Assembly (NCBI GenBank): GCA_965116515.1
Contig: OZ220705.1
Coordinates: 3,888,331-3,952,330 of the forward strand
Reading direction: 5' to 3'
DNA from: Alphaproteobacteria bacterium
GTDB taxonomy: Bacteria; Pseudomonadota; Alphaproteobacteria; SP197
DNA: 64,000 nucleotides
Under the pieces are notes generated by a model. It saw only the letters and a list, made by a program, of their open reading frames with translations, was not told where the DNA came from and did no database searches. Each line of letters starts with the position of its first letter. The first letter of the stretch is position 1. A program made the translations under genes and the position numbers. This document shows positions 7,207 through 36,599 of this stretch, piece by piece.

Positions 7207-7244
7207 GAATGTCACCCCGAATTGCGAGTGTCTTGTCCGAAAAA

Positions 7245-19602: not shown

Positions 19603-19833
19603 ATGGCCACCACCGCTGACCGCATCAGGCAGATCATCGCCGATAATCTCGACGTTGGCCGCGATCCCGACTTCGACGCGAAACTCGTTGACTCCGGCGT
19701 GTCCTCGGTAGACTGCATCGCGTTTTTCAAGATTGTGAACGACGAGTTCAGCCTGGGACTGGTCGCCGAGGAGTGCCGGCAATTCGAGACACTGAATCAA
19801 TTGGTTCAGCACATCGATCAGAAGGCGGCATAA
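19603..19833 (+). CDS. Stand-alone acyl/peptidyl carrier protein (77 aa) with an atypical phosphopantetheine-site motif
   Basis: Four-helix-bundle-sized ORF MATTADRIRQIIADNLDVGRDPDFDAKLVDSGVSSVDCIAFFKIVNDEFSLGL. Candidate attachment Ser within DSGVSSVD (19690..19713). GGAGAC RBS. Sits directly upstream of a PPTase and a PKS. Confidence 0.65.
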   Translation: MATTADRIRQIIADNLDVGRDPDFDAKLVDSGVSSVDCIAFFKIVNDEFSLGLVAEECRQFETLNQLVQHIDQKAA

Positions 19834-19853
19834 CAGCACATCTGCACTGACGA

Positions 19854-19889
19854 CTGACAGGATGTCGCACCTGGCCCGTCGCTGGGTCG
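19854..19889 (+). terminator. Candidate intrinsic terminator hairpin after the carrier-protein gene (GTCGCACC...GGTGCGAC with a nested CCGTCG/CGACGG stem). No U-tract.
   Basis: Inverted repeat read directly 21 nt after the stop codon. Confidence 0.3.
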
Positions 19890-20340
19890 ACGGTGCGACA
19901 GGATGCCCGGGCCAGGGTTCCCGACCGAACAACGGGCTCCTCGCCATGGATTCTTGAGGGCCGGCCGGCCTTGGCGCCTTCCGGACTTTCGCCTGCGGCC
20001 AACCGGCACACGTGCCGCAAAGGGGTCACGGAAAAGCCGAACCGGCGTCGGCCGGGCATCCGCATCCACTCTGTCAGCAGGTGGCGACATGGCCGCCACG
20101 CCCAAAGCTGCTGCCTGTCCAACTCGACGAGTAGCCAGCCGGCACCGGAACTTCGAGTCGAACGGTGCCCATGGCGTCCGGTTGTGCGCCGGAACGCTTC
20201 CAGCGTCCTGGTACAGTCCGTGCCGATCACCCGGGCGGGGCTATCGAGGACCCTGGTCGACGCCGAGAGACGGGCCCCATTTGCGGATCTGAATGCGGCC
20301 GGTAGAGTCCCCGGAGGCATGGCGACCAAGGACTCCGACC

Positions 20341-21045
20341 ATGACCCTGACGGAGAACACATGGTGGACTCACTGGCGCGAGGTGGATGGCACGATCGTT
20401 CTCCATGTCGATCTGGCGCCGGATGCCGGGCGCGAGGCGCGGGCGGTCTCGTTGCTCGACGACAGCGAGAAAGCGCGCGGCCTCCGCTTCCGGTCCGTTT
20501 GTGCCCGCCGCGAGTTCGTCCTTTGCCGCGCGGCGCTTCGCGTCAGCCTCGCCGAGCGCCTGGGCTGCTCTGGTGAACGGCTTTCGTTCGGCTTCCTGGA
20601 ACACGGCAAGCCCTACGCGAGGCTCGCCGACCGGTCCGTGGACATCGCGTTCAACGTCAGTCACAGCGGCGGGCACGGCCTGATCGCGATCACCGACAAG
20701 GCGAGTGTCGGTGTCGACGTGGAGGAACGTGCGCCTCAGCGCGATCTCGACGGCATCGGCAGCCTGGTGTACGGCCCCAGGGAGCAGCGGTTCCTGGGGA
20801 ACGCTTCGGATCGGGAGAAAGTGCAGATCTTCTATCGCCTGTGGAGCATGAAGGAAGCGTTGATCAAGGCACTCGGCACCGGGTTTTCCCTGAACCCGTC
20901 GGGATTCGAGGTTCCCGGACCGATGCTGCGGGGAGAACGGTCCGGCATCTTCCGCTTCCCGCACCTGCCGTCACAGGCGTGGCGGGTCCTGGACCTGGGG
21001 GAGTCCCGATTCGCCGCCGCGCTTGCCTACCGGCTGTCGTCATGA
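20341..21045 (+). CDS. 4'-phosphopantetheinyl transferase, Sfp/EntD type
   Basis: Motifs GKPY, FNVSHSGGHGLIAI, VGVDVEE and WSMKEALIKALGTG. ATG at 20341 with an AAGGA RBS. The listed ORF starts at 20293. Confidence 0.85.
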   Translation: MTLTENTWWTHWREVDGTIVLHVDLAPDAGREARAVSLLDDSEKARGLRFRSVCARREFVLCRAALRVSLAERLGCSGERLSFGFLEHGKPYARLADRSVDIAFNVSHSGGHGLIAITDKASVGVDVEERAPQRDLDGIGSLVYGPREQRFLGNASDREKVQIFYRLWSMKEALIKALGTGFSLNPSGFEVPGPMLRGERSGIFRFPHLPSQAWRVLDLGESRFAAALAYRLSS

Positions 21046-21198: not shown

Positions 21199-22950
21199 AT
21201 GAGCGCCGCCGAAACGCGAGGCATCCGCTTCCAGCCCGATGAGACGCCGGCTCCGGCGCTCTCGCTCGGCCTGGGACTGCAGATCGTCATTCTCTCACTG
21301 GCTGGCATCATCCTGATCCCGACGATCGTGATGCGGGCCGGCGGAGCAAGCGAGAGCTATCTCTCCTGGGCGGTGTTCGCAACGGTCGCGATCTGCGGCG
21401 CTACAACGATCCTGCACGCAATCCGGATCTGGCGAATCGGCACCGGCCACCTGGTCGTTATGGGTCCCACCGGGGTCTACATCGCCGTCTGCATTACCGC
21501 GGTTGCCGAGGGCGGGCCAGCGCTTATGGCGACCCTGGTTGTTGTCTCGTCCGTGCTTCCTCTCGTGCTGGCCGCGCGGATGCCGCTGTTCCAGCGGCTG
21601 CTGACACCGACGCTTTCGGCAACGGTCCTGATGTTGATCCCCGTGACGGTAATGCCTGCCGTGTTCGGTCTCCTGACCGCAGTACCGGACGGCACGTCCG
21701 TTCTGGCATCGGCGCTGAGCGCCCTTGCGGTACTCCTCGTCATCGTAGGCATCGCTCTGAAGGTGACGGGCGCGCCACGCTTGTGGGCGCCGATCGTCGG
21801 GGTGGTCGCAGGCTCCGTTGTCGCCGCCGCGTTCGGCCTCTACGACACGGGCCGCGTCATCGAGGCGCCGTGGATCGGTTTTCCAACGGGCGAGTGGGCG
21901 GGCTTCGATCTCGAATTCGGCCCGGCATTCTGGGCGCTTCTGCCGACCTTTCTGCTCGTTACCGTCATTGCCTCGGTCCGGACCATCAGCGGCGCCGTGG
22001 CCATTCAGCGGGTTTCGTGGCGCCGGCCGCGGGCGGTGGATTTCCGCGCGGTACAGGGCGCGATCACAGTCGACGGTCTGGGCAACCTGCTCACCGGTCT
22101 CGCCGGTACGGTGCCAAACGCGTCCACGACCGTCGGCGCATCCGTAACCGAGTTGACGGGTGTCGCCAGCCGCCACGTTGGTATCGCCACCGGCGCAATC
22201 CTTGTCGTAATAGCGTTTCTGCCGAAGGCGCTCGCCGTCGTGCTGGCGATACCGGGACCGGTGGTCGCCGCCTATCTCGGGGTGTTGCTGGCCATGATCT
22301 TCATTGTCGGAATGAGTGTCGCGATGCGCGACGGGATCGACTACCGCAAGGGCCTAATCATTGGCGTCTCCTTCTGGGTCGGTATCGGTTTCCAGTACGA
22401 CATGATCTATCCCGAACATGTTTCCGAGATCGCCGGTGGACTCCTGCGAAACGGGGTCATGACAGGAGGCGCCGCGGCCATCCTGATGACACTTTTCGTG
22501 GAATTGACGAAACCACGCCGCAGCCGTCTCGTGGTTGCGTTCGAGACCTCCTCGGTGCCGAAGATCAGGAGTTTCCTCGGCATCTTCGCCGACCGGAACG
22601 GGTGGGGCGCGGCGATGGCCGCGCGGCTCGACGCTGCCTGCGAGGAGACGCTTCTCACTCTTCTCCACCAGGACGACGGGTCAGACGTGGCGAATCCGGG
22701 CCGGCGTCTGCGTCTGGCGGTCCACAGGGAAGGCACCGGCGCGGTCGTCGAATTCGTCGTGGCCGCACAGGACGTCAACCTCCAGGATCGCCTCGCGCTG
22801 ATCGGCGACGAGCCGGGCGCAACGCCTGCGGAGCGGGAGGTGTCGCTGCGACTCTTGCGCGGGTTGGCATCCTCTGTGCATCACCAGCAGTATCACGGTG
22901 TCGACATCGTGACCGTTCGCGTTGCGGCGCCGATGTCCGGCGCCGATTGA
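21199..22950 (+). CDS. NCS2-family (nucleobase:cation symporter-2 / xanthine-uracil permease-like) transporter with a ~150-aa C-terminal cytoplasmic extension of unknown function
   Basis: TM1 motif PALSLGLGLQIVIL. NCS2 signature region TTVGASVTELTGVASRHVGIATGAILVVIAFLPK, which I compare with UraA ...TGVASRYVG.... The C-terminal soluble part (FETSSVPKIRSF...VEFVVAAQD...) is not recognisable with confidence. Confidence 0.7.
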   Translation: MSAAETRGIRFQPDETPAPALSLGLGLQIVILSLAGIILIPTIVMRAGGASESYLSWAVFATVAICGATTILHAIRIWRIGTGHLVVMGPTGVYIAVCITAVAEGGPALMATLVVVSSVLPLVLAARMPLFQRLLTPTLSATVLMLIPVTVMPAVFGLLTAVPDGTSVLASALSALAVLLVIVGIALKVTGAPRLWAPIVGVVAGSVVAAAFGLYDTGRVIEAPWIGFPTGEWAGFDLEFGPAFWALLPTFLLVTVIASVRTISGAVAIQRVSWRRPRAVDFRAVQGAITVDGLGNLLTGLAGTVPNASTTVGASVTELTGVASRHVGIATGAILVVIAFLPKALAVVLAIPGPVVAAYLGVLLAMIFIVGMSVAMRDGIDYRKGLIIGVSFWVGIGFQYDMIYPEHVSEIAGGLLRNGVMTGGAAAILMTLFVELTKPRRSRLVVAFETSSVPKIRSFLGIFADRNGWGAAMAARLDAACEETLLTLLHQDDGSDVANPGRRLRLAVHREGTGAVVEFVVAAQDVNLQDRLALIGDEPGATPAEREVSLRLLRGLASSVHHQQYHGVDIVTVRVAAPMSGAD

Positions 22951-23040: not shown

Positions 23041-26000
23041 ATGACGGATCCGGACAGGCCGGAAGGCCGCAAACAGGGAGTGTCCGCCGGCAGCGAGGCC
23101 ATGGCGATTGTAGGCATGGCCTGCCGTTTCCCCGGCGCAGACGACCTCTTCGCCTTCTGGCGCATGCTGGAAGAGGGGAAAAGCGGCGTGATCGAAGGGG
23201 TTCCCGGGTCCGGCGTTGGTCGCATCGGTGAACTGTTCGCTGAAGGCGAGGGGCGGGCCCCGGCCTGCAGGTTCGGCGCCTACCTCGACGAACTCGACCG
23301 GTTCGACGCCGCCTTCTTTCGCATCTCGCCGGTGGAAGCGCAGTTTCTCGACCCCCAGCAGCGAATGATGCTGGAAACCTGCTGGCGCGCACTGGAGGAT
23401 GCCGGCATCGACCCCGACAACCTGAAGGGCAGCCGCACCGGCGTCTTTGCGGGGATCAGCAACAACGAGTATCGCGGGCTGATCCTGGAAAGAACCCGGC
23501 CTGACGAACCCGCCGCGAGCCTTTACTCCGTCACCGGCACCTCGTTCAACACCGCGATCGGCCGGGTCTCTTTCGCTCTCGGCCTGGAGGGCCCGGCGCT
23601 CGCGCTCGATACGGCCTGCTCGTCCTCCCTGGTCGCGATACATCAGGCGGTGACCGCCCTGCAGCGAGACGAGGCGGACGTGGCACTGGCGGGCGGTGTG
23701 CATGCGATCCTCTCCGGTCGTCTGCTGGAGATGCGCGCCAATGCCGGCATGCTTTCGCCGGACGGCCGGTGCGCCACCTTCGATGCCGCTGCCAACGGCT
23801 ACGTGCGCGGTGAGGGCTGCGGGATCGTGGTGATCAAGCGTCTCTCCGATGCCGAGGCCGACGGCGACCGCATATGGGCGGTGATCCGGGGCACCGCGCT
23901 GAACCAGGATGGCGCCAGCCCGGGTCTGACCGTGCCAAGCGGTCCGGCCCAGGAAAAAGTCATGGAGTCCGCGCTGAAACAGGCTGGCCTCTCGCCTTCG
24001 GATGTGGACTACGTGGAGGCGCACGGGACAGGCACCGAGGTTGGCGACCCCATTGAAGCGCAGGCAACCGGCACGGCTTATGGCCACGGACGCGATCCCG
24101 AACGCCCGCTGCTGATCGGCTCGGTCAAGACCAATATCGGCCACCTTGAAGCGGCAGCCGGAGTCGCTGGGGTGATCAAGACGGTGCTGGCCATGAGGCG
24201 GGGCGTCATCCCCAGGCACCTCCATTTCCGGGATCCCAGTCCGGAAATCGACTGGGACCGTCTGCCCCTTCAGGTGACGGCAGAGCCCACCGAATGGCCA
24301 CGGTCTGCCGGTGCGCCGCCGCGCGCGGGGGTGAGCGGTTTCGGCTGGTCGGGGACCAACGCCCATGTGGTGCTGGAAGGGTATGGTGACCGGCACGACA
24401 CCGTCGCCGAAGATCCAGGGCGCTGGACCGACGGGCCGCCGGGGTGCATCGCCATCATTCAACCGTCCTCAATCGAAGGAGCGGCGCCGGTCGCGAAGAC
24501 GCTGGCCTCGCGCGGGTCGCGAATCCTGCCTCTCTCGGGCAGATCGAACGAAGCCCTGAGGGAACTCGCGGGATCGTACCTGTCCTGGCTCGATGAAGGC
24601 ACCCGCGCCGACAGTGCGGAAGCGCTCGCCGACATGGCCTGGACGGCCGCCGTCGGACGCAGTCATTTCGAGTGCCGGTCGGCAGTGGTGTTCCATGACG
24701 CCGGATCCCTGCGCGCCGCCCTGCAAGACCTCCGGGAAGCAGGCGGCACGCGGGTGCCGGCGGCGGCGAGGAAGGTGGCGTTCGCCTATACCGGACAGGC
24801 CAGCCAATGGCCTGGCATGGGCGAAGCGCTCTACGCAAGCGAGCCGGCGGTGCGCGCCGTGCTCGACCGCTGCGACGCGATCCTCGCCAAGGAACGGGAT
24901 GCGTCACTGCTGGACGTGATGTTCGGCCGACCGGGAGCCGCGGGTGACCTCGACGAGCCCCGGTGGAAACAGCCGGCGATCTATGCCCTTGAATGCGCGC
25001 TCACCGCGCTGTGGGACACTCTCGGCGTACGGCCGAATGTCGTGGTCGGACACAGTCTTGGCGAGATCGCGGCGGCGCAGGCTGCGGGCGTGTTCAGTCT
25101 GGAAGAAGGACTGCGCTTCGCCGCAGCCCGGGGCGGGCTGATCGGGGCGCTTCCCGGCGACGGCGCGATGGCCGCGGTCTTTGCGCCCGCTCCGCGTGTC
25201 GCCGAGGCACTGGACGAACACAATGCGGCTTCGGACGGCATTGGCCTTTGTATCGCGGTGGACAACGGCGCCCAGCAGGTGATCAGCGGTCCGGCGGTGG
25301 AGATCGACGCGATCCTGGGACGCCTGGAAGGTCAGGACATCCGGGCCGTGAAACTGCGCAGGAGCCCGGCCTACCACAGCGCGATGATCGACCCGGCCCT
25401 GGACGACCTGGAAGGCGCATTGGCCGGAACCGCGTTCGCTCCGCCTTCGATCCCGTTCGTCAGCAATCTGACCGGCCGCGCGCTGGAGGCCGGTGTCGCG
25501 CCGGACGCGTCCTATTGGCGGCGTCAGGTGCGCGAGCCGGTGGCCTTCCGTGCGTGCATCGAGACCCTGGCGGAATTTGGCGTGGACGCGATCATCGAGA
25601 TCGGTCCCCATGCCGTGTTGGGCCCGATGGCAACGATGGCATGGCCGGAATCCGCAGCCGAACCTCCTGTCGTGCTCTCAAGCCTGCGGCGGCCGGGCAA
25701 GGATGAGGAGCCGCCGCCGGCGGGTTCGGGCGGCGGCTTCATGGAGGCGGTTGCCGGCGCCTACGATGCGGGCCTGGCGCTCGACTTTCCGGGACTGTTC
25801 ACGGGCGAAACGCGCTGCCGCATCGCCCTGCCCGGCTATGCCTTCCAGCGAGAACGCTACTGGGTCGAGGGAACCAGGCGGCGGTCTCAGACCGGCCACC
25901 CCTTGCTGGGAACACGCCACGAGTCCGCGAGCGGCGAGGTCGCCTTCGACACCGAGGTCTTTCCCTCGGACCCGACGTGGCTCAACGACCATCGGGTGTT

Positions 26001-29000
26001 CGGCCGTCTGATTGCGCCCGGCGCGCTCTACGGCGCGATGGCCGCCACCAGCATCCGCGGGGATGGCGGAGGGGAAGCTGCGGTCGAGGACTTTCAGATA
26101 CAGAACGCCCTGGTCTTTCCCGAAGACGACGCGGAGGAGAGATCGAACGACAGGGGCCGGCGGATGCAGGTCCTGCTGGACGACGACGACCACGGTTCCC
26201 GCCGGATCCGCATTCTCAGCAGGGGCGACAGCGAGGACACGTGGACACTGCATGCAGAGGGCCGCATCCCGACAGACTCCTCAGGTTCGACGCGCCCACC
26301 ATCGCGCCTCGATGTCGAGGGAATGAAGGCCGGCCTCTTGCCGGTCGACCTCGCCGCTTACTACCGCTCCAAGGCGGCTGTCGGAATCGATCTCGGTCCC
26401 TCCTTCCGCACGCTGCAGGCGCTGTGGGCCCACGCCGGTGAAGCGGTCGCGGACGTGGTGCTCCCCGTCGAGCGAGAAGGTGATGCGCTCGACGTGCATC
26501 CGCTCGTGCTCGACGGCTGCTTCCAGGCCGTCGGCGCTGCGCGCAACGCCGGCAGCGACGGCGAGGACGTCACCTACCTCCCCTTCGCCTGGGAGCGACT
26601 GTGGCTGGCGGGCAGTCTGCCGGGTCGGCTGGTTTGTCATGTGAAGATGAGGGAAATTCCGCCGGGTCCGCAAGCGGATGCCGATGACTATGAGCCCGAG
26701 GTTCGGGCCGCCGACTTGTGGCTCTATGATCCGGACGGCGTACTGGTCGGCGAACTGGCCGGCTTTACGGTCAAACGCGCGACACGGGCAGCGTTGCTGG
26801 CTTCCGTGGAAGGAATTGACGATCTCATCTACGAGATCGTCTGGCGGGACAGCTCACTTGCACCCGGCATGTTGCCTGCGGATTTCCTGACCGGGCCGCG
26901 GGACATTGCGGCCGACACCCAACTCTTCAGCAACTACCTGGCGAACGAGGATGTGGGTGCGCAAAGCCGGGCCGCGCTGCTTGCGGATCTGGAGCAGTTG
27001 GCGCGCGCCTACGCCCTCCAGACTCTGGACAGGATCGGCTGGCAACGCATCGCCGGCGAACGCGTGGAGTCCGAGGCGTTGCGGGAGCATCTGGAGGTCG
27101 GCGACCACCACCGGCGACTGTTCCGCCGCATGCTGGACATGCTGGCTCAGGACGGGGTTCTGGAGGACCAGGGCGACAGCTTCGTCGTCAACGTTTCCTC
27201 CGGGGCACCTCTCCCGGGGGGACTGGCGAGCGACCCGGATGCCGTGGCTGGCGACATGGCGGCGCGGTACGCGCATGGCACAACCGAAATCGGCCTGTTT
27301 CGACGAAGCGCCGATGCCCTGGCCGATGTCCTGCAGGGACGCATGGATCCGTTGACATTGCTGTTCAGCAGCGGCGAACCGACAGCGGCCGACCTCTATC
27401 TGAAGGCGCCGGTGGCCCGCGCCGCGAACCGGATGCTGGCGGACGCTACGGCGGCATTGCTGCGAGCCCTGCCGGAAGGGCGCACGCTGCGTATACTGGA
27501 GATCGGGGCCGGCACCGGCTCGGCCACCGCGGCCATACTCCCGGAGTTTCCGGAAGGGCGCTACGAGTACACCTATACGGACATCTCGGCCGGCTTCTTC
27601 GCGGAGGCGGAATCGCGCTTCGGCGGTGCCGAGGCATCGATCAACTACCGGGTGCTGGATATCGAGAAGGACCCGGTGGAACAGGACTTCGACCGGCACG
27701 GCTACGACCTCGTGATCGCTTCCAATGTGCTGCACGCGACACGATATCTGAACGAGACGCTGGCGCACTGCCTCAAGGTCCTCGCCCCGTCGGGCCAGCT
27801 TGTCGCGCTGGAGAACCTGCGTGGCCAGGGATGGCTCGACCTGACCTTCGGGCAACTCGACGGCTGGTGGCGATTTGCCGACACGTATCGCCCACACCAT
27901 GCCCTCGCCACTCCGGCGGTGTGGCGCCAGGCATTGGGTGACGCCGGCTTCGGGGACATCGCGATCCTTGGCTTCGACGAGTCCGACCCGAACGCCAATC
28001 CGGACCGGGGGGTGATCCTTGCCCGGGGTCCGGCGGACGTGAGCGAGACGCCGGGTATCTGGGTCCTGGCCGCCGACCGCGGTGGCGTGGCGGCGGATCT
28101 CGCGGCGGATCTCGCGGCACACAACCAGACGGTGGTGCTTGCCGGACCGCAAGCGCCCCCCGGCGAACCAACGGAGGCCGCGGGCGTCGTCAAGACTCTC
28201 GTGGAGGCGGAGCGACGCGAGTCGTGGACATCCCTGCTCGAAGACCTGCCGGGCGACCTTGCAGGTGTCGTTCATCTTGCCGGGCTGGACGGCCATGGCG
28301 CGCAGGCGACGACCGCGGAACTGGCCGAGGACACCCGCCATGCGGCGGCGAGCGCGCTGGCACTGACCCAGGCGCTGGTGGACAGCGATCTGGCCCTGTC
28401 GAAGGGTCTCTGGTTCCTGACACGGGGCGCGCAGATCCTGGAGCGCGAGCGTGGCGGACAACTGACCGGCGCCGCTCTGTGGGGCTTCGGCAAGGTGGCG
28501 GCACGGGAAGCGCCCCAGCTGCAACCGAGAATGCTGGATCTCGATCCCGACGATGCGGTCCTGCCATCCGGCCTGGCGGACGAGTTCCTCCATCCCGATG
28601 CGGAAACACACATCGCCCGTCGATTCGGCCGCCGCCTTGGCGCGCGGCTGGTCCGCGCAGAAGCGGTCGCGGACCGGCTGATCCTGCCCGAGGAGCCCGG
28701 TTGGGAACTGAAGCCCGATGCCGGCGGCTCGCTCGACTCGATCGGGATCATGCAGGTGCCGCCGCTCAGGCTCGAACCCGGAGAGGTCCGCGCAGCGGTC
28801 GACGCCTTCGGGCTCAATTTCCGCGACGTTTTCATCGCCATCGGCGTCGTCGACGACTTCATGGGCGGGGAATTCTGCGGCCGCGTCCTCGAAGTCGGAG
28901 AGGGTGTTACCGGCGTCTCCGTGGGAGACCGCGTCGTCGGACTGACGTTCCGCAACTACGGCTCCGAGACCGTGACTCTGGAAAAGATGATCGTGCCCGC

Positions 29001-32000
29001 ACCACCGGGCTTCTCGGTCAGCGAGCTTGCGACATTTCCGACGGCGTTTGTTTCAGCCGCGCTTTCGTTCGAACTCTCGGGGCTGAAGGCGGGCGATCGC
29101 GTGCTCATCCACGCCGGGGCAGGCGGGGTAGGCCTTGCGGCCATCCAGTTGGCGCAGGCGGCGGGCGCGGAGGTCTTCGCCACGGCGAGTGCGCGCAAGC
29201 GGGACCATCTCCGATCGCTGGGCGTGACTCATGTGTTCGACAGCCGCACGACGGCCTTCGGCCAGGATATCCTGGAGGTGACAGACGGCGCCGGCGTCGA
29301 CATGGTGCTGAACAGCCTGACCGGCGAGGGCTTCATCGAGACCAGCCTGTCATGCCTCGCCCGAGGCGGGCGCTTCGTCGAAATGGGCCGGGTCGGCATC
29401 CTGAGCCACGACGAGATGGCGGCTGCGCGTCCGGACGTGTCCTATGCCATCCTCATGATCGACGCTCTCAAGGAGGACGAACCCGCACGCGCCGGTGACA
29501 TCCTGCGCGGCGTGATGGCGCGGCTTGCCGCCGGAGAGTTGACCCCGCTGCTCCACGCGCGATGGCCCGTGGCCGAAGTGGGAGCTGCGATGAAGTGCAT
29601 GCAGGGCGCCCGGCACATCGGCAAGATCGTCTTCACCAACTCGCCGCTCGCCAGGGGAGCCCTGCGGGGTGACCGGAGCTATCTCGTCACCGGTGGACTT
29701 GGCGGCATCGGCTGCGCGGTGGCGGAATGGCTGGCGGACCGCGGCGCCGGTTCCATCGTGCTCAACGGCCGACGGTCTCCCGACCCAGACGTCGAGCGGG
29801 TGATCGAGGCACTCCGCAAGAGGGGAGCCGAGGTGCGGGTGGAAATAGCCGATATGACCGATCCGCCCGCGATGGACGCCATGATGGCGCGGATCGACGA
29901 GGACCTGCCGCCACTCGCGGGCGTGATCCACAGCGTCGGTGTCCTTTCGGACGCCGCGATCGGCAATCAGAGCTGGGAGAACTTCGAAACGGTGCTCTGG
30001 CCCAAGATTCTGGGAGCATGGCATCTGCACAGGGCGACCGAAAATCGCGATCTCGACATGTTCGTTCTCTTCTCGAGTGTCGCGGGCGTTCTTGGTAATC
30101 CGGGCCAGGCCAACCATGCGGCGGCGAATGCGTTCCTCGACCAGCTCGCCGCGCACCGTCGCTCCCTCGGGCTTGCCGGCCAGGTCATTGCCTGGGGCGC
30201 CTGGTCGGAGATCGGGGAGGCTGAGGAACAGCGGGAGCGGATGTCCCGGCGCTCCGCGTCGGGCGGGCTCGAGTGGATCGTTCCGCAACAGGGCATGAGG
30301 GCCTTCGACCGGCTGGTGCGCGAGGACGCCACGGCGTCCGTGGTGCTCGCGCGTGACTGGACGGCGTTTGGAGAATCGCTCGAGAGCCGTCCGCCCCTGC
30401 TGGAGGACCTGTTGTCAGACGGTGCCGACGACGGCGCCGATGATTCCCTGGCCGACGATCTGTTCACCCGCCTGCAGGATGCGCCCGCGGCAATGCGCGA
30501 AGACGTGATGGCGTCGTTTATCCAGGGAGAAATCAAGGCTGTACTCAGGCTTCCTAGACCGCCGGCGCCCACGGTCGGGTTTTTCGACCTGGGCATGGAT
30601 TCCCTGATGGCGGTGGAGTTCCGCAATCGGCTCAACCGCGCCTTCGCAGGCGCTTACACGGCGTCCAATACGGTGGTGTTCGACTACCCCGACATCGCCG
30701 CACTCTCCGCCTTTCTCGCGGATGAGCTTGCCGGAGTCGTGGGCGCCGACGTGCCCGCCGCGCGAACCGTGCCGGCAGCCGTGCGCGATCACGACAACAC
30801 TTCGGACGGCATCGCCATTGTGGGCATGGCCTGCCGATTCCCGGGAGCACCAGATCTGCCGGCTTTCTGGCGTCACCTTGATTCCGGCTCGAGTGCCGTC
30901 ACCGGGGAGCGTCCCGAGACAGGCCCCTGGAGTGGCTACATCGACCATCTGCCCCCGCAATACGCGGAATTCGGCAACGCAGGCTTCATCGACGGGATCG
31001 ATCAGTTCGATGCCCGCTTCTTCGGTATCTCGCCGATCGAGGCACGGCTGGTCGATCCACAGCAACGGATGCTGCTGGAAACGACCTGGCAGGCCCTGGA
31101 GGACGCGGGGATCGACCCCGACCGGCTCAAGGGCAGTCGCACCGGGGTCTATGCCGGCATAGCGAGCAGCGAATACCGCGACCTGATGAGGAACGAGGAT
31201 TACGGTATCGGCTATCTCAGCACCGCTGCGAGCATGGCGGTTGGCCGGCTTTCGTTCCGCTTCGGTCTTGGCGGGCCCGCGATGCCCGTGGAACTCAACT
31301 GCGCTTCATCGCTGGTTGCGGTGCACCATGCCGTCACGGACCTGCGCCTGGGCACGGTGCACATGGCCTTGGCCGGCGGTGCGAGCGCCGTCCTGTCTGC
31401 GCCGGTGACGCGCGAAATGGCTGATCTGGGCCTTCTGTCGCGCGGCGGTGCATGCCGGACCTTCGATGCGAAAGCGGACGGGTTTGTGCGGGGCGAGGGC
31501 TGTGGCGTGATCATCCTCAAGCGTCTTGCAGACGCGGAGGCCGACGGCGATCGGATCTGGGCGGTGATCCGCGGCTCTGCGGTCAACCAGAACGGCGCGG
31601 CCGCCGGTGCAACGGTGCCGAACGGCCCGGCTCAGGAACGGGTGATCGAGCAGGCGCTCTCGCAGGCCGGCTTCGCCCCCGGCGAAGTGGACTACCTGGA
31701 GGCACACGGCGCCGGTTCGGCGTTTGGCGATCCCATCGAGGTACAGGCAGCGGCGGCGGTGTATGGAAGGGAGAGAGCCAGCGACCGCCCGCTACTGATC
31801 GGTTCGGTAAAGACCAGTATCGGACATCTCGAGTCGGCGGCCGGCATCGCCGGACTGATGAAGACCGTGCTGGCCATGAACCGGGGCGCCATTCCCCGCC
31901 ACCTGAACTTCCGGACCCCGAATCCGCTCATCGAGTGGGACCGGTTGCCAGTGCGGGTGACGGAGGAAGCGACCGCCTGGCCATGCGATACCGCCCGACC

Positions 32001-33252
32001 ACCGAGGGCCGGGGTGAGCGCCTTCGGAATCTCGGGAGTCAACGCCCATGTCGTGTTGGAGGGATATGCTGCCGAGGGCCCTGTGCCCGTGGGGCCGGCG
32101 CTGCCGACCGCAGTCTCCCTGCCGAAACCGATTGCCGCTCAACCCCAGGAGGAGATTGCGCTCGCAGCGCGCACCATGCGTCTCTTGCCGCTTTCGGCCA
32201 AGTCGGATGACGCGCTGAGAGCGCTCGCCGAGCGGTACCTTGGATGGCTTGACGAGCGGTCCGACGAACTGGCGCCGGGAGAAGCTGCATCCGGTTCCCT
32301 GCTGTCCGACATGGCATGGACGGCCGGAGTGGGAAGGAGCCATCTTGCACATCGCGCCGGCCTCGTGTTCCGTGACGCCGCGGCGCTGCGGGCGGGTTTG
32401 AAGGCTCTGGTGGCATCCCGGGACCTCCCGGAACCCGGGACACCTGCAAAGGTTGCATTCGCCTACCCGGAGGAGTTGGGCAACTGGACTGCCCTGGCGG
32501 GGACACTCTACGAGATCGAACCGGTGGTCCGGGCGGTACTCGACCGCTGTGAGGCCGCCATGCACGACCGGTGGAACGAGTCGCTGCTCGAAAGACTGTT
32601 CCGCCGAAGCGAACCGGTTGATCCGGCATGGGCGCGGCCCATGGTCTGTTCCCTGGCATGTGCGCTCACGGCGCTCTGGTCGAGCATCGGCATCCGGCCA
32701 GGCGTGGCGATCGGCTGGGGAGCCGGCGAACTGGCGGCAGCCCAGGCCGCCGGCGTCTTCGATCTGGAGCAGGGGCTCACGCTTGCGACGGAACCGGACG
32801 ATGCACCCGAAGTCATCATGCCATCCCCGCCATCGATCAGCCTCGTCAGCAGCGCCACGGGGCGGCTGGTCGATCCAGGCGACATGCCGGACGGAGCTCG
32901 CTGGAGTCGTCAGACGCACGTCCGGGCGGCCCCGGAGCGTTGCGCTGGCACTTTGGCGGAACTGGACGTCGACGCGATGATCGAGATCGGCCCTGGAACC
33001 GAATTCGGATCGATGCTCGCCCGTGCCTCGACGGCGGCTGCCGACAGCGGCGTGGCGGTTTCGATCGAGACCCTGCGGCGATCAGGCGGAGACGAGGACG
33101 GCGGCTTCATCGCTGCGGTCGCCGCAGCCTACGAGGCGGGCCTTGCGGTGTCCTTCGAGGGTCTCTTTGCGGGCGAGGCCAGGCGCCGGATCGCGCTTCC
33201 CGGCTACCCGTTCCAGCGCCGAAGCCACTGGCTCGTGTCGCGCGAACGGTAG
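23041..33252 (+). CDS. Type I polyketide synthase, single 3403-aa ORF. Domain order: KS-AT-DH-cMT-(KR structural subdomain)-ER-KR-ACP-KS-AT0 (degenerate, truncated AT). No TE or R domain.
   Basis: KS1 DTACSSSLVA, EAHGTGT, NIGHLE. AT1 GHSLGE. DH HPLLGTRHESASGEVAFDTEVFPSDPTWLNDHRV. cMT LEIGAGTG. ER HAGAGGVG. KR TGGLGGIG. ACP LGMDSLMAVE. KS2 ELNCASSLVA, EAHGAGS, SIGHLE. Second AT-like region has GWGAGE in place of GHSLGE. Confidence 0.9.
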   Translation: MTDPDRPEGRKQGVSAGSEAMAIVGMACRFPGADDLFAFWRMLEEGKSGVIEGVPGSGVGRIGELFAEGEGRAPACRFGAYLDELDRFDAAFFRISPVEAQFLDPQQRMMLETCWRALEDAGIDPDNLKGSRTGVFAGISNNEYRGLILERTRPDEPAASLYSVTGTSFNTAIGRVSFALGLEGPALALDTACSSSLVAIHQAVTALQRDEADVALAGGVHAILSGRLLEMRANAGMLSPDGRCATFDAAANGYVRGEGCGIVVIKRLSDAEADGDRIWAVIRGTALNQDGASPGLTVPSGPAQEKVMESALKQAGLSPSDVDYVEAHGTGTEVGDPIEAQATGTAYGHGRDPERPLLIGSVKTNIGHLEAAAGVAGVIKTVLAMRRGVIPRHLHFRDPSPEIDWDRLPLQVTAEPTEWPRSAGAPPRAGVSGFGWSGTNAHVVLEGYGDRHDTVAEDPGRWTDGPPGCIAIIQPSSIEGAAPVAKTLASRGSRILPLSGRSNEALRELAGSYLSWLDEGTRADSAEALADMAWTAAVGRSHFECRSAVVFHDAGSLRAALQDLREAGGTRVPAAARKVAFAYTGQASQWPGMGEALYASEPAVRAVLDRCDAILAKERDASLLDVMFGRPGAAGDLDEPRWKQPAIYALECALTALWDTLGVRPNVVVGHSLGEIAAAQAAGVFSLEEGLRFAAARGGLIGALPGDGAMAAVFAPAPRVAEALDEHNAASDGIGLCIAVDNGAQQVISGPAVEIDAILGRLEGQDIRAVKLRRSPAYHSAMIDPALDDLEGALAGTAFAPPSIPFVSNLTGRALEAGVAPDASYWRRQVREPVAFRACIETLAEFGVDAIIEIGPHAVLGPMATMAWPESAAEPPVVLSSLRRPGKDEEPPPAGSGGGFMEAVAGAYDAGLALDFPGLFTGETRCRIALPGYAFQRERYWVEGTRRRSQTGHPLLGTRHESASGEVAFDTEVFPSDPTWLNDHRVFGRLIAPGALYGAMAATSIRGDGGGEAAVEDFQIQNALVFPEDDAEERSNDRGRRMQVLLDDDDHGSRRIRILSRGDSEDTWTLHAEGRIPTDSSGSTRPPSRLDVEGMKAGLLPVDLAAYYRSKAAVGIDLGPSFRTLQALWAHAGEAVADVVLPVEREGDALDVHPLVLDGCFQAVGAARNAGSDGEDVTYLPFAWERLWLAGSLPGRLVCHVKMREIPPGPQADADDYEPEVRAADLWLYDPDGVLVGELAGFTVKRATRAALLASVEGIDDLIYEIVWRDSSLAPGMLPADFLTGPRDIAADTQLFSNYLANEDVGAQSRAALLADLEQLARAYALQTLDRIGWQRIAGERVESEALREHLEVGDHHRRLFRRMLDMLAQDGVLEDQGDSFVVNVSSGAPLPGGLASDPDAVAGDMAARYAHGTTEIGLFRRSADALADVLQGRMDPLTLLFSSGEPTAADLYLKAPVARAANRMLADATAALLRALPEGRTLRILEIGAGTGSATAAILPEFPEGRYEYTYTDISAGFFAEAESRFGGAEASINYRVLDIEKDPVEQDFDRHGYDLVIASNVLHATRYLNETLAHCLKVLAPSGQLVALENLRGQGWLDLTFGQLDGWWRFADTYRPHHALATPAVWRQALGDAGFGDIAILGFDESDPNANPDRGVILARGPADVSETPGIWVLAADRGGVAADLAADLAAHNQTVVLAGPQAPPGEPTEAAGVVKTLVEAERRESWTSLLEDLPGDLAGVVHLAGLDGHGAQATTAELAEDTRHAAASALALTQALVDSDLALSKGLWFLTRGAQILERERGGQLTGAALWGFGKVAAREAPQLQPRMLDLDPDDAVLPSGLADEFLHPDAETHIARRFGRRLGARLVRAEAVADRLILPEEPGWELKPDAGGSLDSIGIMQVPPLRLEPGEVRAAVDAFGLNFRDVFIAIGVVDDFMGGEFCGRVLEVGEGVTGVSVGDRVVGLTFRNYGSETVTLEKMIVPAPPGFSVSELATFPTAFVSAALSFELSGLKAGDRVLIHAGAGGVGLAAIQLAQAAGAEVFATASARKRDHLRSLGVTHVFDSRTTAFGQDILEVTDGAGVDMVLNSLTGEGFIETSLSCLARGGRFVEMGRVGILSHDEMAAARPDVSYAILMIDALKEDEPARAGDILRGVMARLAAGELTPLLHARWPVAEVGAAMKCMQGARHIGKIVFTNSPLARGALRGDRSYLVTGGLGGIGCAVAEWLADRGAGSIVLNGRRSPDPDVERVIEALRKRGAEVRVEIADMTDPPAMDAMMARIDEDLPPLAGVIHSVGVLSDAAIGNQSWENFETVLWPKILGAWHLHRATENRDLDMFVLFSSVAGVLGNPGQANHAAANAFLDQLAAHRRSLGLAGQVIAWGAWSEIGEAEEQRERMSRRSASGGLEWIVPQQGMRAFDRLVREDATASVVLARDWTAFGESLESRPPLLEDLLSDGADDGADDSLADDLFTRLQDAPAAMREDVMASFIQGEIKAVLRLPRPPAPTVGFFDLGMDSLMAVEFRNRLNRAFAGAYTASNTVVFDYPDIAALSAFLADELAGVVGADVPAARTVPAAVRDHDNTSDGIAIVGMACRFPGAPDLPAFWRHLDSGSSAVTGERPETGPWSGYIDHLPPQYAEFGNAGFIDGIDQFDARFFGISPIEARLVDPQQRMLLETTWQALEDAGIDPDRLKGSRTGVYAGIASSEYRDLMRNEDYGIGYLSTAASMAVGRLSFRFGLGGPAMPVELNCASSLVAVHHAVTDLRLGTVHMALAGGASAVLSAPVTREMADLGLLSRGGACRTFDAKADGFVRGEGCGVIILKRLADAEADGDRIWAVIRGSAVNQNGAAAGATVPNGPAQERVIEQALSQAGFAPGEVDYLEAHGAGSAFGDPIEVQAAAAVYGRERASDRPLLIGSVKTSIGHLESAAGIAGLMKTVLAMNRGAIPRHLNFRTPNPLIEWDRLPVRVTEEATAWPCDTARPPRAGVSAFGISGVNAHVVLEGYAAEGPVPVGPALPTAVSLPKPIAAQPQEEIALAARTMRLLPLSAKSDDALRALAERYLGWLDERSDELAPGEAASGSLLSDMAWTAGVGRSHLAHRAGLVFRDAAALRAGLKALVASRDLPEPGTPAKVAFAYPEELGNWTALAGTLYEIEPVVRAVLDRCEAAMHDRWNESLLERLFRRSEPVDPAWARPMVCSLACALTALWSSIGIRPGVAIGWGAGELAAAQAAGVFDLEQGLTLATEPDDAPEVIMPSPPSISLVSSATGRLVDPGDMPDGARWSRQTHVRAAPERCAGTLAELDVDAMIEIGPGTEFGSMLARASTAAADSGVAVSIETLRRSGGDEDGGFIAAVAAAYEAGLAVSFEGLFAGEARRRIALPGYPFQRRSHWLVSRER
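23095..24384 (+). other. PKS domain KS1 (ketosynthase), active-site Cys codon at 23617..23619
   Basis: AIVGMACRFPGA ... DTACSSSLVA ... EAHGTGT ... NIGHLEAAAG ... NAHVVLEGY. Confidence 0.85.
24772..25870 (+). other. PKS domain AT1 (acyltransferase) plus post-AT linker. Active Ser codon at 25054..25056.
   Basis: FAYTGQASQWPGMG ... GHSLGEIAAAQAAG ... RRSPAYHSAMI (unusual specificity motif) ... RIALPGYAFQRERYWV. Confidence 0.8.
25897..26790 (+). other. PKS domain DH (dehydratase)
   Basis: HPLLG...P catalytic-His motif, then LDGCFQ and the hot-dog fold region. Confidence 0.7.
26880..27990 (+). other. PKS domain cMT (C-methyltransferase). Motif I LEIGAGTG at 27496..27519.
   Basis: LRILEIGAGTGSATAAILPEF ... 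YDLVIASNVLHAT. Confidence 0.75.
28050..28620 (+). other. PKS KR N-terminal structural (pseudo-KR) subdomain
   Basis: Rossmann-like region GIWVLAADRGGVAADLAADLAAH ... GVVHLAGLD preceding the ER, as in fully reducing modules. Confidence 0.5.
28680..29640 (+). other. PKS domain ER (enoylreductase, MDR family)
   Basis: LEPGEVRAAVDAFGLNFRDV ... DRVLIHAGAGGVGLAAIQLAQAAGAEVFATAS. Confidence 0.8.
29677..30250 (+). other. PKS domain KR (ketoreductase catalytic subdomain) with His in place of the catalytic Tyr (NHAAAN; His codon CAT at 30115..30117)
   Basis: SYLVTGGLGGIG ... FSSVAGVLGNPGQANHAAANAFLDQLA. Confidence 0.75.
30460..30700 (+). other. PKS domain ACP. Phosphopantetheine Ser codon at 30601..30603.
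   Basis: FFDLGMDSLMAVEFRNRLN. Confidence 0.8.
30808..32067 (+). other. PKS domain KS2 (second ketosynthase). Cys codon at 31300..31302.
   Basis: GIAIVGMACRFPGAP ... VELNCASSLVA ... EAHGAGSAFGDP ... SIGHLESAAG ... NAHVVLEGY. Confidence 0.8.
32449..33252 (+). other. PKS AT0: degenerate, shortened acyltransferase-like remnant (GWGAGE; Ala codon 32722..32724 where the catalytic Ser is expected). It is followed directly by the stop codon.
   Basis: KVAFAYPEELGNWT in place of FAYTGQASQWPGMG. IGWGAGELAAAQAAG. Only about 160 aa lie between this motif and the RRIALPGYPFQRRSHWL linker-like end, compared with about 260 aa in AT1. Confidence 0.7.
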
Positions 33253-34199
33253 GCGGGACCACGAGCGCGGGTTTCGTCTTCCGGATCCCCGTGCGCGGCC
33301 TTTCGGAAGCCAAGTCCTGTCAGGTACTCGCGCACCATCGCCGCGCATTGCGCGGGTTGTTCCAGTTGCAGAAAGTGTGACGCCTGTGGCACGAAGTCGT
33401 AGTCGACAGCCGACGCATGACTGAGGTCGAAGGTGGGGAGATACGCGTATGGCAGCGTCGGATCGGCGCCGATGACCTTGGTCGGGCAGATCAGAATCGA
33501 CAGATCCAGCAACGGCGAAAAGCTCCTCACGTACTCCGCGATCTGGGCTTCGTAGTCGCGAGGACAGCGCAGTTCGTACCCGTTTCCGTCGGCGCTCTCG
33601 CGAAGAGTCGACCGTGCCATGAGATCGCGCACGCCCGGTACAACCCGGGCAAATCCGGGAACGATGGCCAGGACTTCCGCATACTGCTCTTCGGACTTGA
33701 ACCGCTCCGTCCGGCGCCGGGTCATTGCGGCCGTCCTCTCCGCCGCCTCGATGAACTCCAGTTCGCTTGAGGCGGGTTTGCAGAGCGGCGGATCGAACAG
33801 GACCAGCGCGGAATAGGCGTCATTGAATGACAGCAGGGCGACAAGCGTCGACAGTGAATGAAACACTCCGACCGTCGTCTTTTCGCCGTACTCCCGGACG
33901 ATGGCATCGAGAATGATGTCATGATCGAAAATCAGTGTCGGAATGTTGTGGTCCCGCTGGGAACCGACCTCGTTCCAGCCGTGGTTCCTGAGGTCATAGA
34001 CCATCAGGTCGAAGTCATCGGCGAGCAACGACCAGAACGGATAGTAAAGGTCGGCCGCGAGACCGTTACCGTGGGTCAGAACAAGCCGTGGACCGGACGG
34101 GTTGCCGTATCGCCGCACGGTGGTCACGGTGCTCGTGTCGATCCGGACGTCGAACGTGGCAAGAGGCTCGGGTATCGTCCACATCGTTGCTTCCGTCAT
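33204..34199 (-). CDS. Alpha/beta-hydrolase-fold protein (candidate thioesterase/hydrolase). Convergent with the PKS gene and overlapping its 3' end by 49 bp.
   Basis: 332 aa from MTEATMWTIPEPL. Fold-typical HGNGLAADLYYPFW and a nucleophile-elbow-like VGVFHSLSTL that is non-canonical. Confidence 0.55.
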   Translation of the reverse strand: MTEATMWTIPEPLATFDVRIDTSTVTTVRRYGNPSGPRLVLTHGNGLAADLYYPFWSLLADDFDLMVYDLRNHGWNEVGSQRDHNIPTLIFDHDIILDAIVREYGEKTTVGVFHSLSTLVALLSFNDAYSALVLFDPPLCKPASSELEFIEAAERTAAMTRRRTERFKSEEQYAEVLAIVPGFARVVPGVRDLMARSTLRESADGNGYELRCPRDYEAQIAEYVRSFSPLLDLSILICPTKVIGADPTLPYAYLPTFDLSHASAVDYDFVPQASHFLQLEQPAQCAAMVREYLTGLGFRKAAHGDPEDETRARGPAYRSRDTSQWLRRWNG

Positions 34200-34707
34200 G
34201 ACGCTTGTGTCCGCTTTCCTCTCTATGCGGTGCCTGCAACGGGACACGGCATGACTTCAATGGTCGCCCACGTCACCGCAACGTTCACGGAATATTCGGA
34301 CGAATTGGTTTCCCCTGAATACAGGAACCTGGGGACGGTTGTCCGCTGTGTGGTGGTTCCCCGCGTGTCCGAAATCCGGGGAAACTTCCTTTCATCGGTC
34401 TTGAGATCAATGTTTCATAGTTTGCGTCCTGATACCACACACGAGACAGCCATCCCTTCCAGCCGTCCCGTGCTTGCCGGCCTCGGCGGAGACATCGCAC
34501 TCCACCGACGGGCCAAGCCAGGCAGCGAACGAACGACCATGATCGGTGGCGCATGGACCGGGCCAGGCTGCGGCCCCTCTGCATCTTCGGCAAACGCAGC
34601 GGGTTCGTTGTCGGGCAGACAACGTCACCGACACCGTGGTTGCCCTGGACCCGGGTATGGTAGAACGATCTCCTGGCACTCCGGGGGTCCGGGAGAGGGA
34701 TGACACC

Positions 34708-36042
34708 ATGGACGACCGACTCACGCAGTCACTTCAGGATCTCGACCGTCATCACCACCTGCATCCCTTTACCGATGCCCGCGTCTTCAATGACGCCGGC
34801 GTACGCGTCATCACCGGAGCCGAGGGCGTTTACCTGACCACCTCGCGCGGTCACCGCGTACTCGATGGCATGGCGGGCCTGTGGTGCGTGAACATTGGCT
34901 ACGGGCGCCCGGAACTTGCCCGTGCAGCCCATGACCAACTCCTCTCGCTGCCCTACTACAACACCTTCTTCCAGACATCGACCGTGCCCACCACCCGCCT
35001 CGCCGGACGCCTCGCGGAGATTGCTCCGGAGGGCTTCAACCATGTCTTCTTCGCCAATTCCGGATCGGAAGCAAACGACACGGCGGCGAAGATGGTGCGC
35101 TGGTACTGGCACACGAAGGGGAAGCCATCCCGCAAGACCATCATTTCCCGCCGCCATGCCTACCATGGTGTCACCATGGCGGCGGCGAGCATGTGCGGGC
35201 TCGAGGAGATGCACCCCCAGTTCGACCTACCCCTTCCCGGATTCATCCACGCGGACTGTCCATACTGGTACCGCTACGGCCGCGGGATGGACCCGGAAGA
35301 CTTCGGTATCGCCGCGGCCCGCTCGGTCGAACGGCTGATTACCGAGAACGGCCCGGAGAACATCGGCGCGTTCATCGGCGAACCGGTGATGGGTGCCGGT
35401 GGGGTCATCGTGCCTCCGGAAAGCTATTGGCCGGAAATCATGAGAATTTGCCGCCGATACGACATCCTCGTCATAGCCGATGAGGTGATCTGCGGGTTTG
35501 GCCGGACGGGCGAATGGTTCGGCAGCAACACCTTCGGCATCGAACCCGACATCATGACCATCGCCAAGGGACTCTCGTCAGGCTATCAGCCCATCAGCGG
35601 CGTACTCGTGCACGACCGGATTGCCGGCGTGATGGTCGAAGAAGGTGGGGAGTTTCAACATGGATTCACGTGGTCGGGCCATCCTGTTGCCGCCGCCGTG
35701 GCGCTGGAGAACATCGACATTCTCCGGCGCGAGGCCATCATCGAGACATGCCGGAACGTGACCGCGCCGCACCTGCAGCAGCGCCTGCGGGATCTTGTCG
35801 ATCGTCCTCTCGTCGGCGAGGTGCGTGGCGTGGGCATGATGGCAGCGGTGGAACTCCGCGGCAATAAGGGCACCGCCGCCATGGTTCGCGAAGAGGCATG
35901 GAAACGTGGCCTTCTCGTCCGCGCGACCGGAGAATCGCTCATCCTGTCACCGCCCCTCATCATCACGACGGACGAGGTCGACATGCTGGCAGATACACTC
36001 CTTGCGACACTCGACGCCGTCGAATCACAGCCCGCCGCATGA
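34708..36042 (+). CDS. Class III (omega) aminotransferase, PLP-dependent (putrescine/beta-alanine-pyruvate aminotransferase-like)
   Basis: GAEGVYLTTSRGHRVLDGMAGLWCVNIGYGRPEL, FANSGSEANDTAAKM, ADEVICGFGRTGEWFG, TIAKGLSSGYQP (PLP Lys). ATG at 34708 with a GGGAGAGGGA RBS. Confidence 0.85.
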   Translation: MDDRLTQSLQDLDRHHHLHPFTDARVFNDAGVRVITGAEGVYLTTSRGHRVLDGMAGLWCVNIGYGRPELARAAHDQLLSLPYYNTFFQTSTVPTTRLAGRLAEIAPEGFNHVFFANSGSEANDTAAKMVRWYWHTKGKPSRKTIISRRHAYHGVTMAAASMCGLEEMHPQFDLPLPGFIHADCPYWYRYGRGMDPEDFGIAAARSVERLITENGPENIGAFIGEPVMGAGGVIVPPESYWPEIMRICRRYDILVIADEVICGFGRTGEWFGSNTFGIEPDIMTIAKGLSSGYQPISGVLVHDRIAGVMVEEGGEFQHGFTWSGHPVAAAVALENIDILRREAIIETCRNVTAPHLQQRLRDLVDRPLVGEVRGVGMMAAVELRGNKGTAAMVREEAWKRGLLVRATGESLILSPPLIITTDEVDMLADTLLATLDAVESQPAA

Positions 36043-36053
36043 GGTTCTGAGCC

Positions 36054-36599
36054 TTGATTGGACGATTCGCGGCAAGGTTGGGACGCCGCCTTCCCGGGCA
36101 AATGGTGGCCGGAACGATCCTCACGATTGTGGGTGTCTGGTTCTTCTTCCAGCCGTTGCGTCATGACTACCCCATGGCGGAAGACCTCGTCGCAGTCGAG
36201 GCGGGCGTCGTGGAGGCTGTCGAAATCCGCAAGCGGCGCGGCGCCGTCATCCGCTTCCTCGTTCCCGACCCCCTCGAACTGCAGGCAGTTCTCGAAGGAG
36301 ACAGGAGGATCGTGCGCTATCGCAGTGACCTTCCGCACTACCGGGAACTCAAGCAGACCCTGAAGTCAGGAGCTCATGTCTTTCATCTGTGGATCGATGC
36401 GTCCGACCCCGACGATGCCACTCTTGTCTGGCAGCTCGACAGCGGGGGAACAACCCTGATCTCGGTTGATGACACCATCGAGGCGCTGGTGGACGTCCGT
36501 AGACGGCAGATGTGGCTGCCTGGCGCCATAGCGATCTTCGGTCTCGCCATCATCACACTGTCCATGCGGCGGCGCCTGCCAGGGGAGCCTGCGGCCTGA
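36054..36599 (+). CDS. Small membrane protein with an N-terminal and a C-terminal TM helix (DUF3592-like topology), unknown function
   Basis: 181 aa. TM segments VAGTILTIVGVWFFF and LPGAIAIFGLAIITL. Starts 12 nt after the aminotransferase stop. Confidence 0.45.
   Translation: MIGRFAARLGRRLPGQMVAGTILTIVGVWFFFQPLRHDYPMAEDLVAVEAGVVEAVEIRKRRGAVIRFLVPDPLELQAVLEGDRRIVRYRSDLPHYRELKQTLKSGAHVFHLWIDASDPDDATLVWQLDSGGTTLISVDDTIEALVDVRRRQMWLPGAIAIFGLAIITLSMRRRLPGEPAA

Follow-up and report, generated by a model that had tools for sequence, protein, structure and literature searches.

The window, a stretch of 64,000 nucleotides (nt) from an alphaproteobacterium (GTDB lineage SP197; GenBank assembly GCA_965116515.1, contig OZ220705.1), carries seven neighbouring genes between positions 19,603 and 36,599, the largest of which encodes a polyketide synthase (PKS). 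Judged by its protein sequences, the core of this locus is the sup cluster in the order supB-supC-supE-supA-supD, with 98-100% protein identity to the type clone, and it is therefore already known. The cluster was reportedly described in a 2007 paper (Fieseler et al., Appl Environ Microbiol 73:2144), from a bacterium living in symbiosis with the sponge Aplysina aerophoba, and we take clone pAPKS18 (GenBank ABE03911-ABE03916) to be the type example of this 'sponge symbiont ubiquitous PKS'. An earlier sequence-only reading of the window had proposed seven open reading frames (ORFs), and an ORF check and Pfam recovered all of them at these coordinates:

19603..19833, + strand: supB, a free-standing acyl carrier protein (ACP) of 76 amino acids (aa) (Pfam PP-binding)
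20341..21045, + strand: supC, an Sfp/HetI-type 4'-phosphopantetheinyl transferase (PPTase) of 234 aa (Pfam ACPS and AASDHPPT_N)
21199..22950, + strand: supE, an NCS2/xanthine-uracil-type (Xan_ur) permease of 583 aa (the mechanically called ORF begins at 21118)
23041..33252, + strand: supA, a type I PKS of 3403 aa (Pfam; match to SupA of pAPKS18)
33204..34199, - strand: supD, an alpha/beta hydrolase of 331 aa with an invariant Ser-Asp-His triad
34708..36042, + strand: a class-III omega-aminotransferase of 444 aa (Pfam Aminotran_3), outside the conserved cassette
36054..36599, + strand: a 181-aa protein that starts 12 nt past the aminotransferase, outside the conserved cassette

The window proteins were placed by exact-sequence and 90%-cluster look-ups, which also imply the gene order of pAPKS18. 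The window PKS and SupA of the clone (ABE03915.1) are both 3403 aa long, agree at 3329 of 3403 positions (98%) with zero gaps, and share a 90% cluster. The carrier protein has exactly the sequence of SupB (ABE03911.1) and the permease is 98% identical to SupE of pAPKS18, while the PPTase and the hydrolase belong to the 90% clusters of SupC (ABE03913.1) and SupD (ABE03916.1) respectively. SupE (ABE03914) of pAPKS18 has been tabulated as a permease (PMC3908369, Table 1). Three features of the sup family are present: a SupA-orthologous PKS; a reducing module with a C-methyltransferase (cMT) followed by a second ketosynthase-acyltransferase (KS-AT) pair; and supB, supC, supD and supE adjoining supA. 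The flanking genes of the window cluster with the 'epimerase' (ABE03910), 'aminotransferase' (ABE03917) and 'membrane protein'/MurJ (ABE03919) of pAPKS18, whose record calls ABE03917 plain 'aminotransferase', with no Sup name. What separates the two is about 2% amino-acid divergence and the context, a cosmid insert in one case and 64 kb of chromosome in the other. Exact-sequence look-ups also placed proteins identical to those of the window on contigs of 4.1-4.7 Mb.

The sequence-only reading named, as grounds for its own refutation, an already characterized PKS family with the same neighbourhood. Such a family had been described (though not biochemically characterized) and the window proteins are 98-100% identical to those of pAPKS18, so the locus is not new. 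Its view of the PKS as a single long ORF stands when weighed against a misassembly of two genes: SupA of the pAPKS18 cosmid also has 3403 aa and aligns gap-free, and 56 homologues are uninterrupted.

SupA homologues on metagenome contigs L001-L004 and L006 are often called as two genes, split at varying sites. Contig L002 has a frameshift at about 9863-10025, for which either a long-read assembly error or real pseudogenization is possible, and an amplicon study of 2014 found frameshifts in 15% of supA fragments. The split database gene calls raise the idea that the family is a two-gene PKS; we rejected it since the split points vary among contigs, L002 is frameshifted and 56 loci are single-frame.

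We then compared the window with the best 80 loci from bacterial and archaeal genomes sampled at one genome per species, using an alignment of the ACP-KS2-AT0 region (the integrated ACP and the second KS-AT pair of SupA) as the query. All 80 loci come from metagenome-assembled genomes (MAGs) and they span more than 15 phyla, with taxa that include Nitrospirales, Latescibacterota, Alpha- and Gammaproteobacteria, Gemmatimonadota, Chloroflexota, Acidobacteriota, Binatia, Acidimicrobiia, Opitutales, Dadabacteria and Rhodothermales. Several of the MAGs carry sponge-derived names, for example Poriferisocius and Palauibacter irciniicola. A homology search with the C-terminal 903 aa of the PKS returned C-terminal KS-AT homologues that were 50-71% identical, from metagenome-assembled Rhodospirillales, Gemmatimonadota, Latescibacteria, Nitrospira and Caldilineaceae.

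Window proteins were also run by tblastn against 87 loci, namely the 80 from the genome scan and seven fetched earlier. Near SupA homologues, SupB and SupD were each found in at least 54 loci, SupE in at least 38 and SupC in at least 33, all of these being lower bounds because the flanks are limited. Gene orders vary: E-A-D(-)-B(-), A-B-C-D-E(-) and A-E-D(-)-B(-) occur, and the window has B-C-E-A-D(-). No other real gene family recurred beside supA in an all-against-all clustering of the flanking ORFs. The set is retained despite its shuffled order, which is good evidence that supA, supB, supC, supD and supE make up a putative functional unit. The sequence-only reading had treated all seven genes as one locus; only five, the PKS among them, are conserved together across 80 other species, and the aminotransferase and the 181-aa protein are lineage-restricted.

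The starts at 20341 (PPTase), 21199 (permease), 34199 (hydrolase) and 34708 (aminotransferase) were set by exact matches to database gene calls. An alternative supC start at 20293 would give 250 aa, the length annotated in pAPKS18. The first four genes had been described as co-directional with short gaps. They are co-directional, but the ACP-PPTase gap is 507 nt; the PPTase-permease and permease-PKS gaps are 153 and 90 nt. Downstream of the PKS, the hydrolase had been called convergent, with the aminotransferase and the small protein following it. supD is indeed convergent with supA, overlapping its 3' end tail to tail by 49 nt, but the other two genes lie on the + strand and diverge from supD. 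The gap between supB and supC (19834-20340) gave no Rfam match and no promoter or terminator consensus in Rfam and consensus scans, and none of three candidate ORFs in it could be matched to ABE03912, the ORF that lies between supB and supC in pAPKS18. Somewhere in this gap the window and contig L007 differ by a 4-nt indel.

The domain order proposed for SupA from the sequence (KS-AT-DH-cMT-ER-KR-ACP, then a second KS and an inactive AT, or AT0, with no thioesterase (TE) or reductase (R) release domain) agrees with Pfam and with the motifs. Pfam gives KS-AT-DH-MT-ER-KR-ACP-KS-AT with E-values to 1e-154, and found no R or TE domain in SupA. Motif counts across the family come from an alignment of 56 SupA homologues, each an uninterrupted frame of about 3200-3600 aa between stops and each with this domain layout. 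The domains of SupA in the window are:

23098..25680, + strand: KS1 (aa 20-445; Cys193, His328, His368) and AT1 (aa 575-880; GHSLG) (Pfam, motif alignment)
25888..30240, + strand: reductive and methylation loop DH-cMT-ER-KR (Pfam, motif alignment)
30508..30735, + strand: integrated ACP, GMDS2521LM (Pfam PP-binding), its serine invariant in 56 of 56 homologues
30793..33240, + strand: KS2 (Cys2754, His2889, His2929) and the AT0 remnant (motif alignment)

The catalytic motifs of KS1, AT1, DH, cMT, ER and ACP are invariant or nearly so in the 56 homologues, the motifs of the second AT (AT2) being the exception. In the window, the DH domain has His984 and Asp1158, the cMT domain EIGAGTG, NVLHAT and Glu1591, and the ER domain HAGAGGVG. 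The KR domain has GGLGGIG, Lys2322, Ser2346 and Asn2363, with His2359 at the tyrosine position. In AT domains, HAFH is the malonyl-type and YASH the methylmalonyl-type specificity motif. AT1 reads PAYH in the window and x-A-[Y/F]-H family-wide, which is nearer to HAFH than to YASH. Together with the intact cMT, this motif points to the use of malonyl extender units and of branches derived from S-adenosylmethionine (SAM).

The second KS keeps its triad across the family (Cys in 56, the first His in 52 and the second His in 56 of 56 homologues). In AT0 of the window, on the other hand, GWGAG takes the place of the expected GHSxG, a GQGSQ motif is missing, and about 105 aa have been lost internally by comparison with AT1. 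The nucleophile position of this domain is occupied by Gly in the window; among the 56 homologues it is Gly in 38, Asp in 5 and a gap in 10, or 53 in all. Further loss of the AT2 domain is seen in 10 of the 56. KS1 and KS2 are paralogues that are 53-57% identical, and they group by type in 112 of 112 nearest neighbours. The duplication is therefore older than the spread of the family. Mean identity among the homologues is highest for KR (77%, the most constrained), followed by KS1 (68%) and KS2 (64%), and lowest for AT0 (47%). On this pattern of conservation KS2 is a domain under purifying selection and AT2 is a presumed scaffold.

The KR domain has histidine in place of tyrosine (His2359, window 30115-30117) in all 56 homologues, with Lys, Ser and Asn retained, and in the alignment with mycocerosic acid synthase the catalytic Tyr of that enzyme stands opposite His2359. 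The substitution is no novelty, since according to a review (PMC7327777) this tyrosine is 'sometimes replaced by histidine' in KR domains. We take the histidine form to be an active variant. In the multi-module relatives of SupA, His-type and Tyr-type KRs occur together within one protein. These relatives (L036, L039, L041, L042, L047, L057, L067 and L087, from Bryobacterales, Longimicrobiales and Binatia MAGs) reach lengths of 5800-7600 aa or more and carry two or three tandem copies of a KS-AT-DH-MT-ER-KR-ACP module; some of the genomes have two loci about 25-45 kb apart.

The sequence-only reading had likened the domain order of SupA to that of the fungal highly reducing PKSs (HR-PKSs). The fungal enzyme LovB does share the order KS-AT-DH-cMT-ER-KR-ACP and the lack of an integrated TE. 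However, among solved relatives the KR region is nearer to the bacterial mycocerosic acid synthase (176 bits) than to LovB (97 bits), and the SupA homologues in the 80-locus scan were found only in bacterial MAGs. LovB has an inactive ER that is complemented by LovC, and its product is released by LovG, a discrete alpha/beta hydrolase. By comparison, the ER motifs of SupA are intact, and SupA has a second KS-AT where LovB has none. Mycocerosic acid synthase makes methyl-branched fatty acids, with branches that come from methylmalonyl-CoA. It is likewise a bacterial, fully reducing enzyme, with the order KS-AT-DH-ER-KR-ACP and no loading module (PDB 9d2y, 5bp4). SupA differs from it in having an active cMT of the SAM type, an AT motif x-A-[Y/F]-H in place of YASH, His in place of Tyr in the KR, an extra KS2-AT0, and a need for a separate ACP, a hydrolase and a permease.

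These likenesses bear on whether SupA works iteratively, as mycocerosic acid synthase and fungal HR-PKSs do, and builds most of a chain with one or several methyl groups, or whether it inserts one methyl-branched C2 unit into a chain made by fatty-acid synthase (FAS). The domain order is that of iterative fully reducing synthases, with mycocerosic acid synthase the best solved match and LovB also a match, and a single active AT goes with a complete reductive loop. Set against this, the literature treats Sup as monomodular and ties it to single mid-chain branches (PMC4245539; PMC4210886), the conserved second KS and second ACP suggest a hand-over, and the relatives with two or three module repeats argue mildly for one cycle per module. 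We consider iterative building of most of the chain unlikely.

A second sponge-wide family of monomodular reducing PKS/FAS enzymes, swf (SwfA-C), offers a further comparison (PMC3908369). SwfA has the order KS-AT-DH-ER-KR-ACP, with a reductase/sulfotransferase and a radical-SAM enzyme as partners; unlike SupA, it is without a cMT and without a second KS. A permease resembling SupE (44% identity) is present on one swf fosmid, flanked there by anti-anti-sigma (STAS) genes (PMC3908369).

The accessory proteins can be read in part from their motifs. SupB has its probable phosphopantetheine site at Ser35 in GVSSVD, and 61 homologues conserve Ser-x-Asp at 90% or more. SupC gives a weak NCBIfam HetI match in addition to its Pfam domains. 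SupE ends in a cytosolic domain of about 150 aa (about 22471-22950) with an RsbW/SpoIIAB-like fold; the usual ATP-binding boxes were not seen when the accessory proteins were inspected by eye. The STAS genes beside the SupE homologue of the swf fosmid hint, as a speculation, at control of the partner-switching type. The SupD model resembles acyl-CoA and PKS thioesterases, including CurM TE; a fold search gave a generic alpha/beta hydrolase, and sequence search found no close solved relative. From its model, SupD is likely to be a trans-acting thioesterase or acyl-hydrolase.

supA appears to have a history of its own within the locus. The KS1, ER and KS2 domains of the window SupA are 83-87% identical to those of L001 and L055, which differ from the window in gene order and neighbours. 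To their counterparts in L002 and L089 the same domains show only 59-67% identity, despite shared synteny, whereas the neighbours of supA in L002 are 77-94% identical to those of the window (SupB 94%, SupD 82%, aminotransferase 90%, MurJ 88%). This conflict between the phylogeny of supA and its flanks suggests that a recombination or horizontal-transfer event replaced the PKS gene within an otherwise conserved locus.

The aminotransferase calls for separate treatment, as the sequence-only reading had given it a part in the pathway. In that proposal the reduced, C-methylated chain undergoes a last, unreduced condensation on SupB, SupD frees a beta-keto acid that is decarboxylated, and the aminotransferase then yields an alkylamine or amino-lipid. 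In its favour, KS2 is intact and comes without its own reductive domains, and SupA, which lacks a TE or R domain, has a trans hydrolase beside it. The gene next to supD is moreover the aminotransferase, in divergent orientation, an adjacency kept in the related genomes L002, L088 and L089. A ketone substrate for the enzyme would presumably arise only via spontaneous decarboxylation. Comparison across loci gives the proposal no support. An orthologue of the aminotransferase occurs in 1 of the 87 loci (L002, with the synteny of the window) and all told only in L002, L088 and L089, with the same synteny; no other sampled species has it at its sup locus. Other class-III aminotransferases near sup loci are about 30% identical and lie 2-8 kb off. 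Outside the lineage of the window, the sampled sup loci show no co-conservation of the aminotransferase with the PKS. Where the aminotransferase is kept, MurJ and a Pot-like (polyamine-type) ABC transporter are kept with it, which argues for synteny of the chromosomal backbone and not for a functional link. The aminotransferase of the window is 90% identical to that of L002 and SupA only 57-68%, which implies different histories. The enzyme belongs to a broad subfamily (NCBIfam NF005682, general omega-aminotransferases, 663 bits against a cut-off of 510), it sits among amine-catabolism genes, and its counterpart in the pAPKS18 record bears no Sup name. We hold the alkylamine route to be very improbable.

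The companion 181-aa protein was found in 1 of the 87 loci by tblastn. It has N- and C-terminal hydrophobic segments and gave no Pfam or NCBIfam match. An amine-catabolism neighbourhood, as first proposed, does surround the locus: a BetI-type TetR regulator, an arginase-family protein, DAO, a choline sulfatase, GGT, a PotABCD-like transporter, a Rieske oxygenase and OpuAC are present. This amine/osmolyte-catabolism backbone is the simpler setting for the aminotransferase, and both it and the 181-aa protein would belong there and not to sup.

Elsewhere in the window, an ORF at 43542-44846 (434 aa), between the Pot-like transporter and the Rieske oxygenase, matched no Pfam family and is conserved in L088, and a second ORF at 6619-7215 (198 aa) likewise matched no Pfam family. 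Near the window end (62348-63304) lies a TnpB/IS605 OrfB-type gene with Pfam OrfB_IS605 and a Cas12f1-like TNB domain.

The literature on sup supplies the setting for a mechanism. Papers that cite the original description liken the family to fatty-acid synthases, and in PCR surveys of sponge microbiomes it is said to be the PKS type that dominates. The Sup enzymes have been called 'unusual, small monomodular polyketide synthases' (PMC4245539). Sup is described as limited to high-microbial-abundance sponges, and its proposed products are mid-chain methyl-branched fatty acids (PMC4245539; PMC4210886); an earlier assignment of sup to Poribacteria has been withdrawn (same papers). A survey from 2023 reported a sponge-specific KS clade that is absent from MIBiG and comes mainly from Gemmatimonadetes and Alphaproteobacteria (PMC10308959), which matches the taxa of the SupA homologues that we found.

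Based on these comparisons, we have formed a joint reading in which we place high confidence: the window carries the sup cluster in the uncultured alphaproteobacterial lineage of the type clone, as a five-gene unit that excludes the aminotransferase and the 181-aa protein and that would make a methyl-branched product by the mechanism proposed below. An active cMT beside a full reductive loop fits a mid-chain methyl-branched fatty acid, and use of a free-standing ACP by KS2, followed by release through a trans-hydrolase, is plausible.

The first part of our model concerns how a chain would be started and branched. We propose that SupC turns both carrier domains into their holo form. KS1 would be primed directly by an acyl thioester, because SupA has no loading module, a situation that resembles mycocerosic acid synthase. 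AT1 would load malonate, and the cMT would add an alpha-methyl group derived from SAM. The KR (in its histidine variant), DH and ER would then fully reduce the unit. There may be one malonyl extension or, alternatively, several cycles.

The second part of the model concerns the hand-over and release of the chain. KS2, which has only a dead AT as a scaffold, would take the 2-methyl-acyl chain and condense it with malonyl-SupB, itself loaded by AT1 or by FabD. The chain on SupB could be reduced and elongated further, or released. SupD would hydrolyse the thioester and free the chain, and the product would be a mid-chain methyl-branched fatty acid or lipid.

The SupB-bound stage allows another outcome. 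If SupD cleaved 3-oxoacyl-SupB and the acid decarboxylated spontaneously, with no return to fatty-acid elongation, the product would be a methyl-branched methyl ketone or hydrocarbon. No KR, DH or ER belongs to the KS2/SupB 'module' itself, and the SupD model is like those of offloading thioesterases, CurM TE included. However, the reductive loop of SupA or FAS II enzymes could process SupB-bound intermediates, the correlation reported in sponges concerns branched fatty acids (PMC4245539; PMC4210886), and we found no support for such a product in the literature that we read. We give this outcome little chance, and prefer the methyl-branched fatty acid or lipid.

Several points weigh against our model. 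SupB, SupC, SupD and SupE were undetected in about one-third of the loci, which is due partly to limited flanks and partly to multi-module relatives. The model also assigns no role to the permease, despite its invariable linkage. In the accessible literature we found no demonstrated product for any sup cluster.

A bolder idea is confined to the lineage of the window. The aminotransferase and the 181-aa protein might there have taken on the amination of a Sup-derived 3-oxo or methyl-ketone intermediate, and the RsbW-like domain of SupE would couple transport to control of the synthase. If true, this lineage would make its own methyl-branched alkylamine or amino-lipid, but we see the idea as a long shot.

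As a discovery the locus is of limited value, the cluster having been published in 2007. It keeps some value in that we know of no proven product from this very abundant family. What the window adds is the type cluster in an intact chromosomal context, from which a clean expression construct can be made. The comparison across genomes narrows the unit to be expressed to supABCDE without the aminotransferase. Finally, it appears that supA has been swapped between co-resident symbionts faster than its neighbours.

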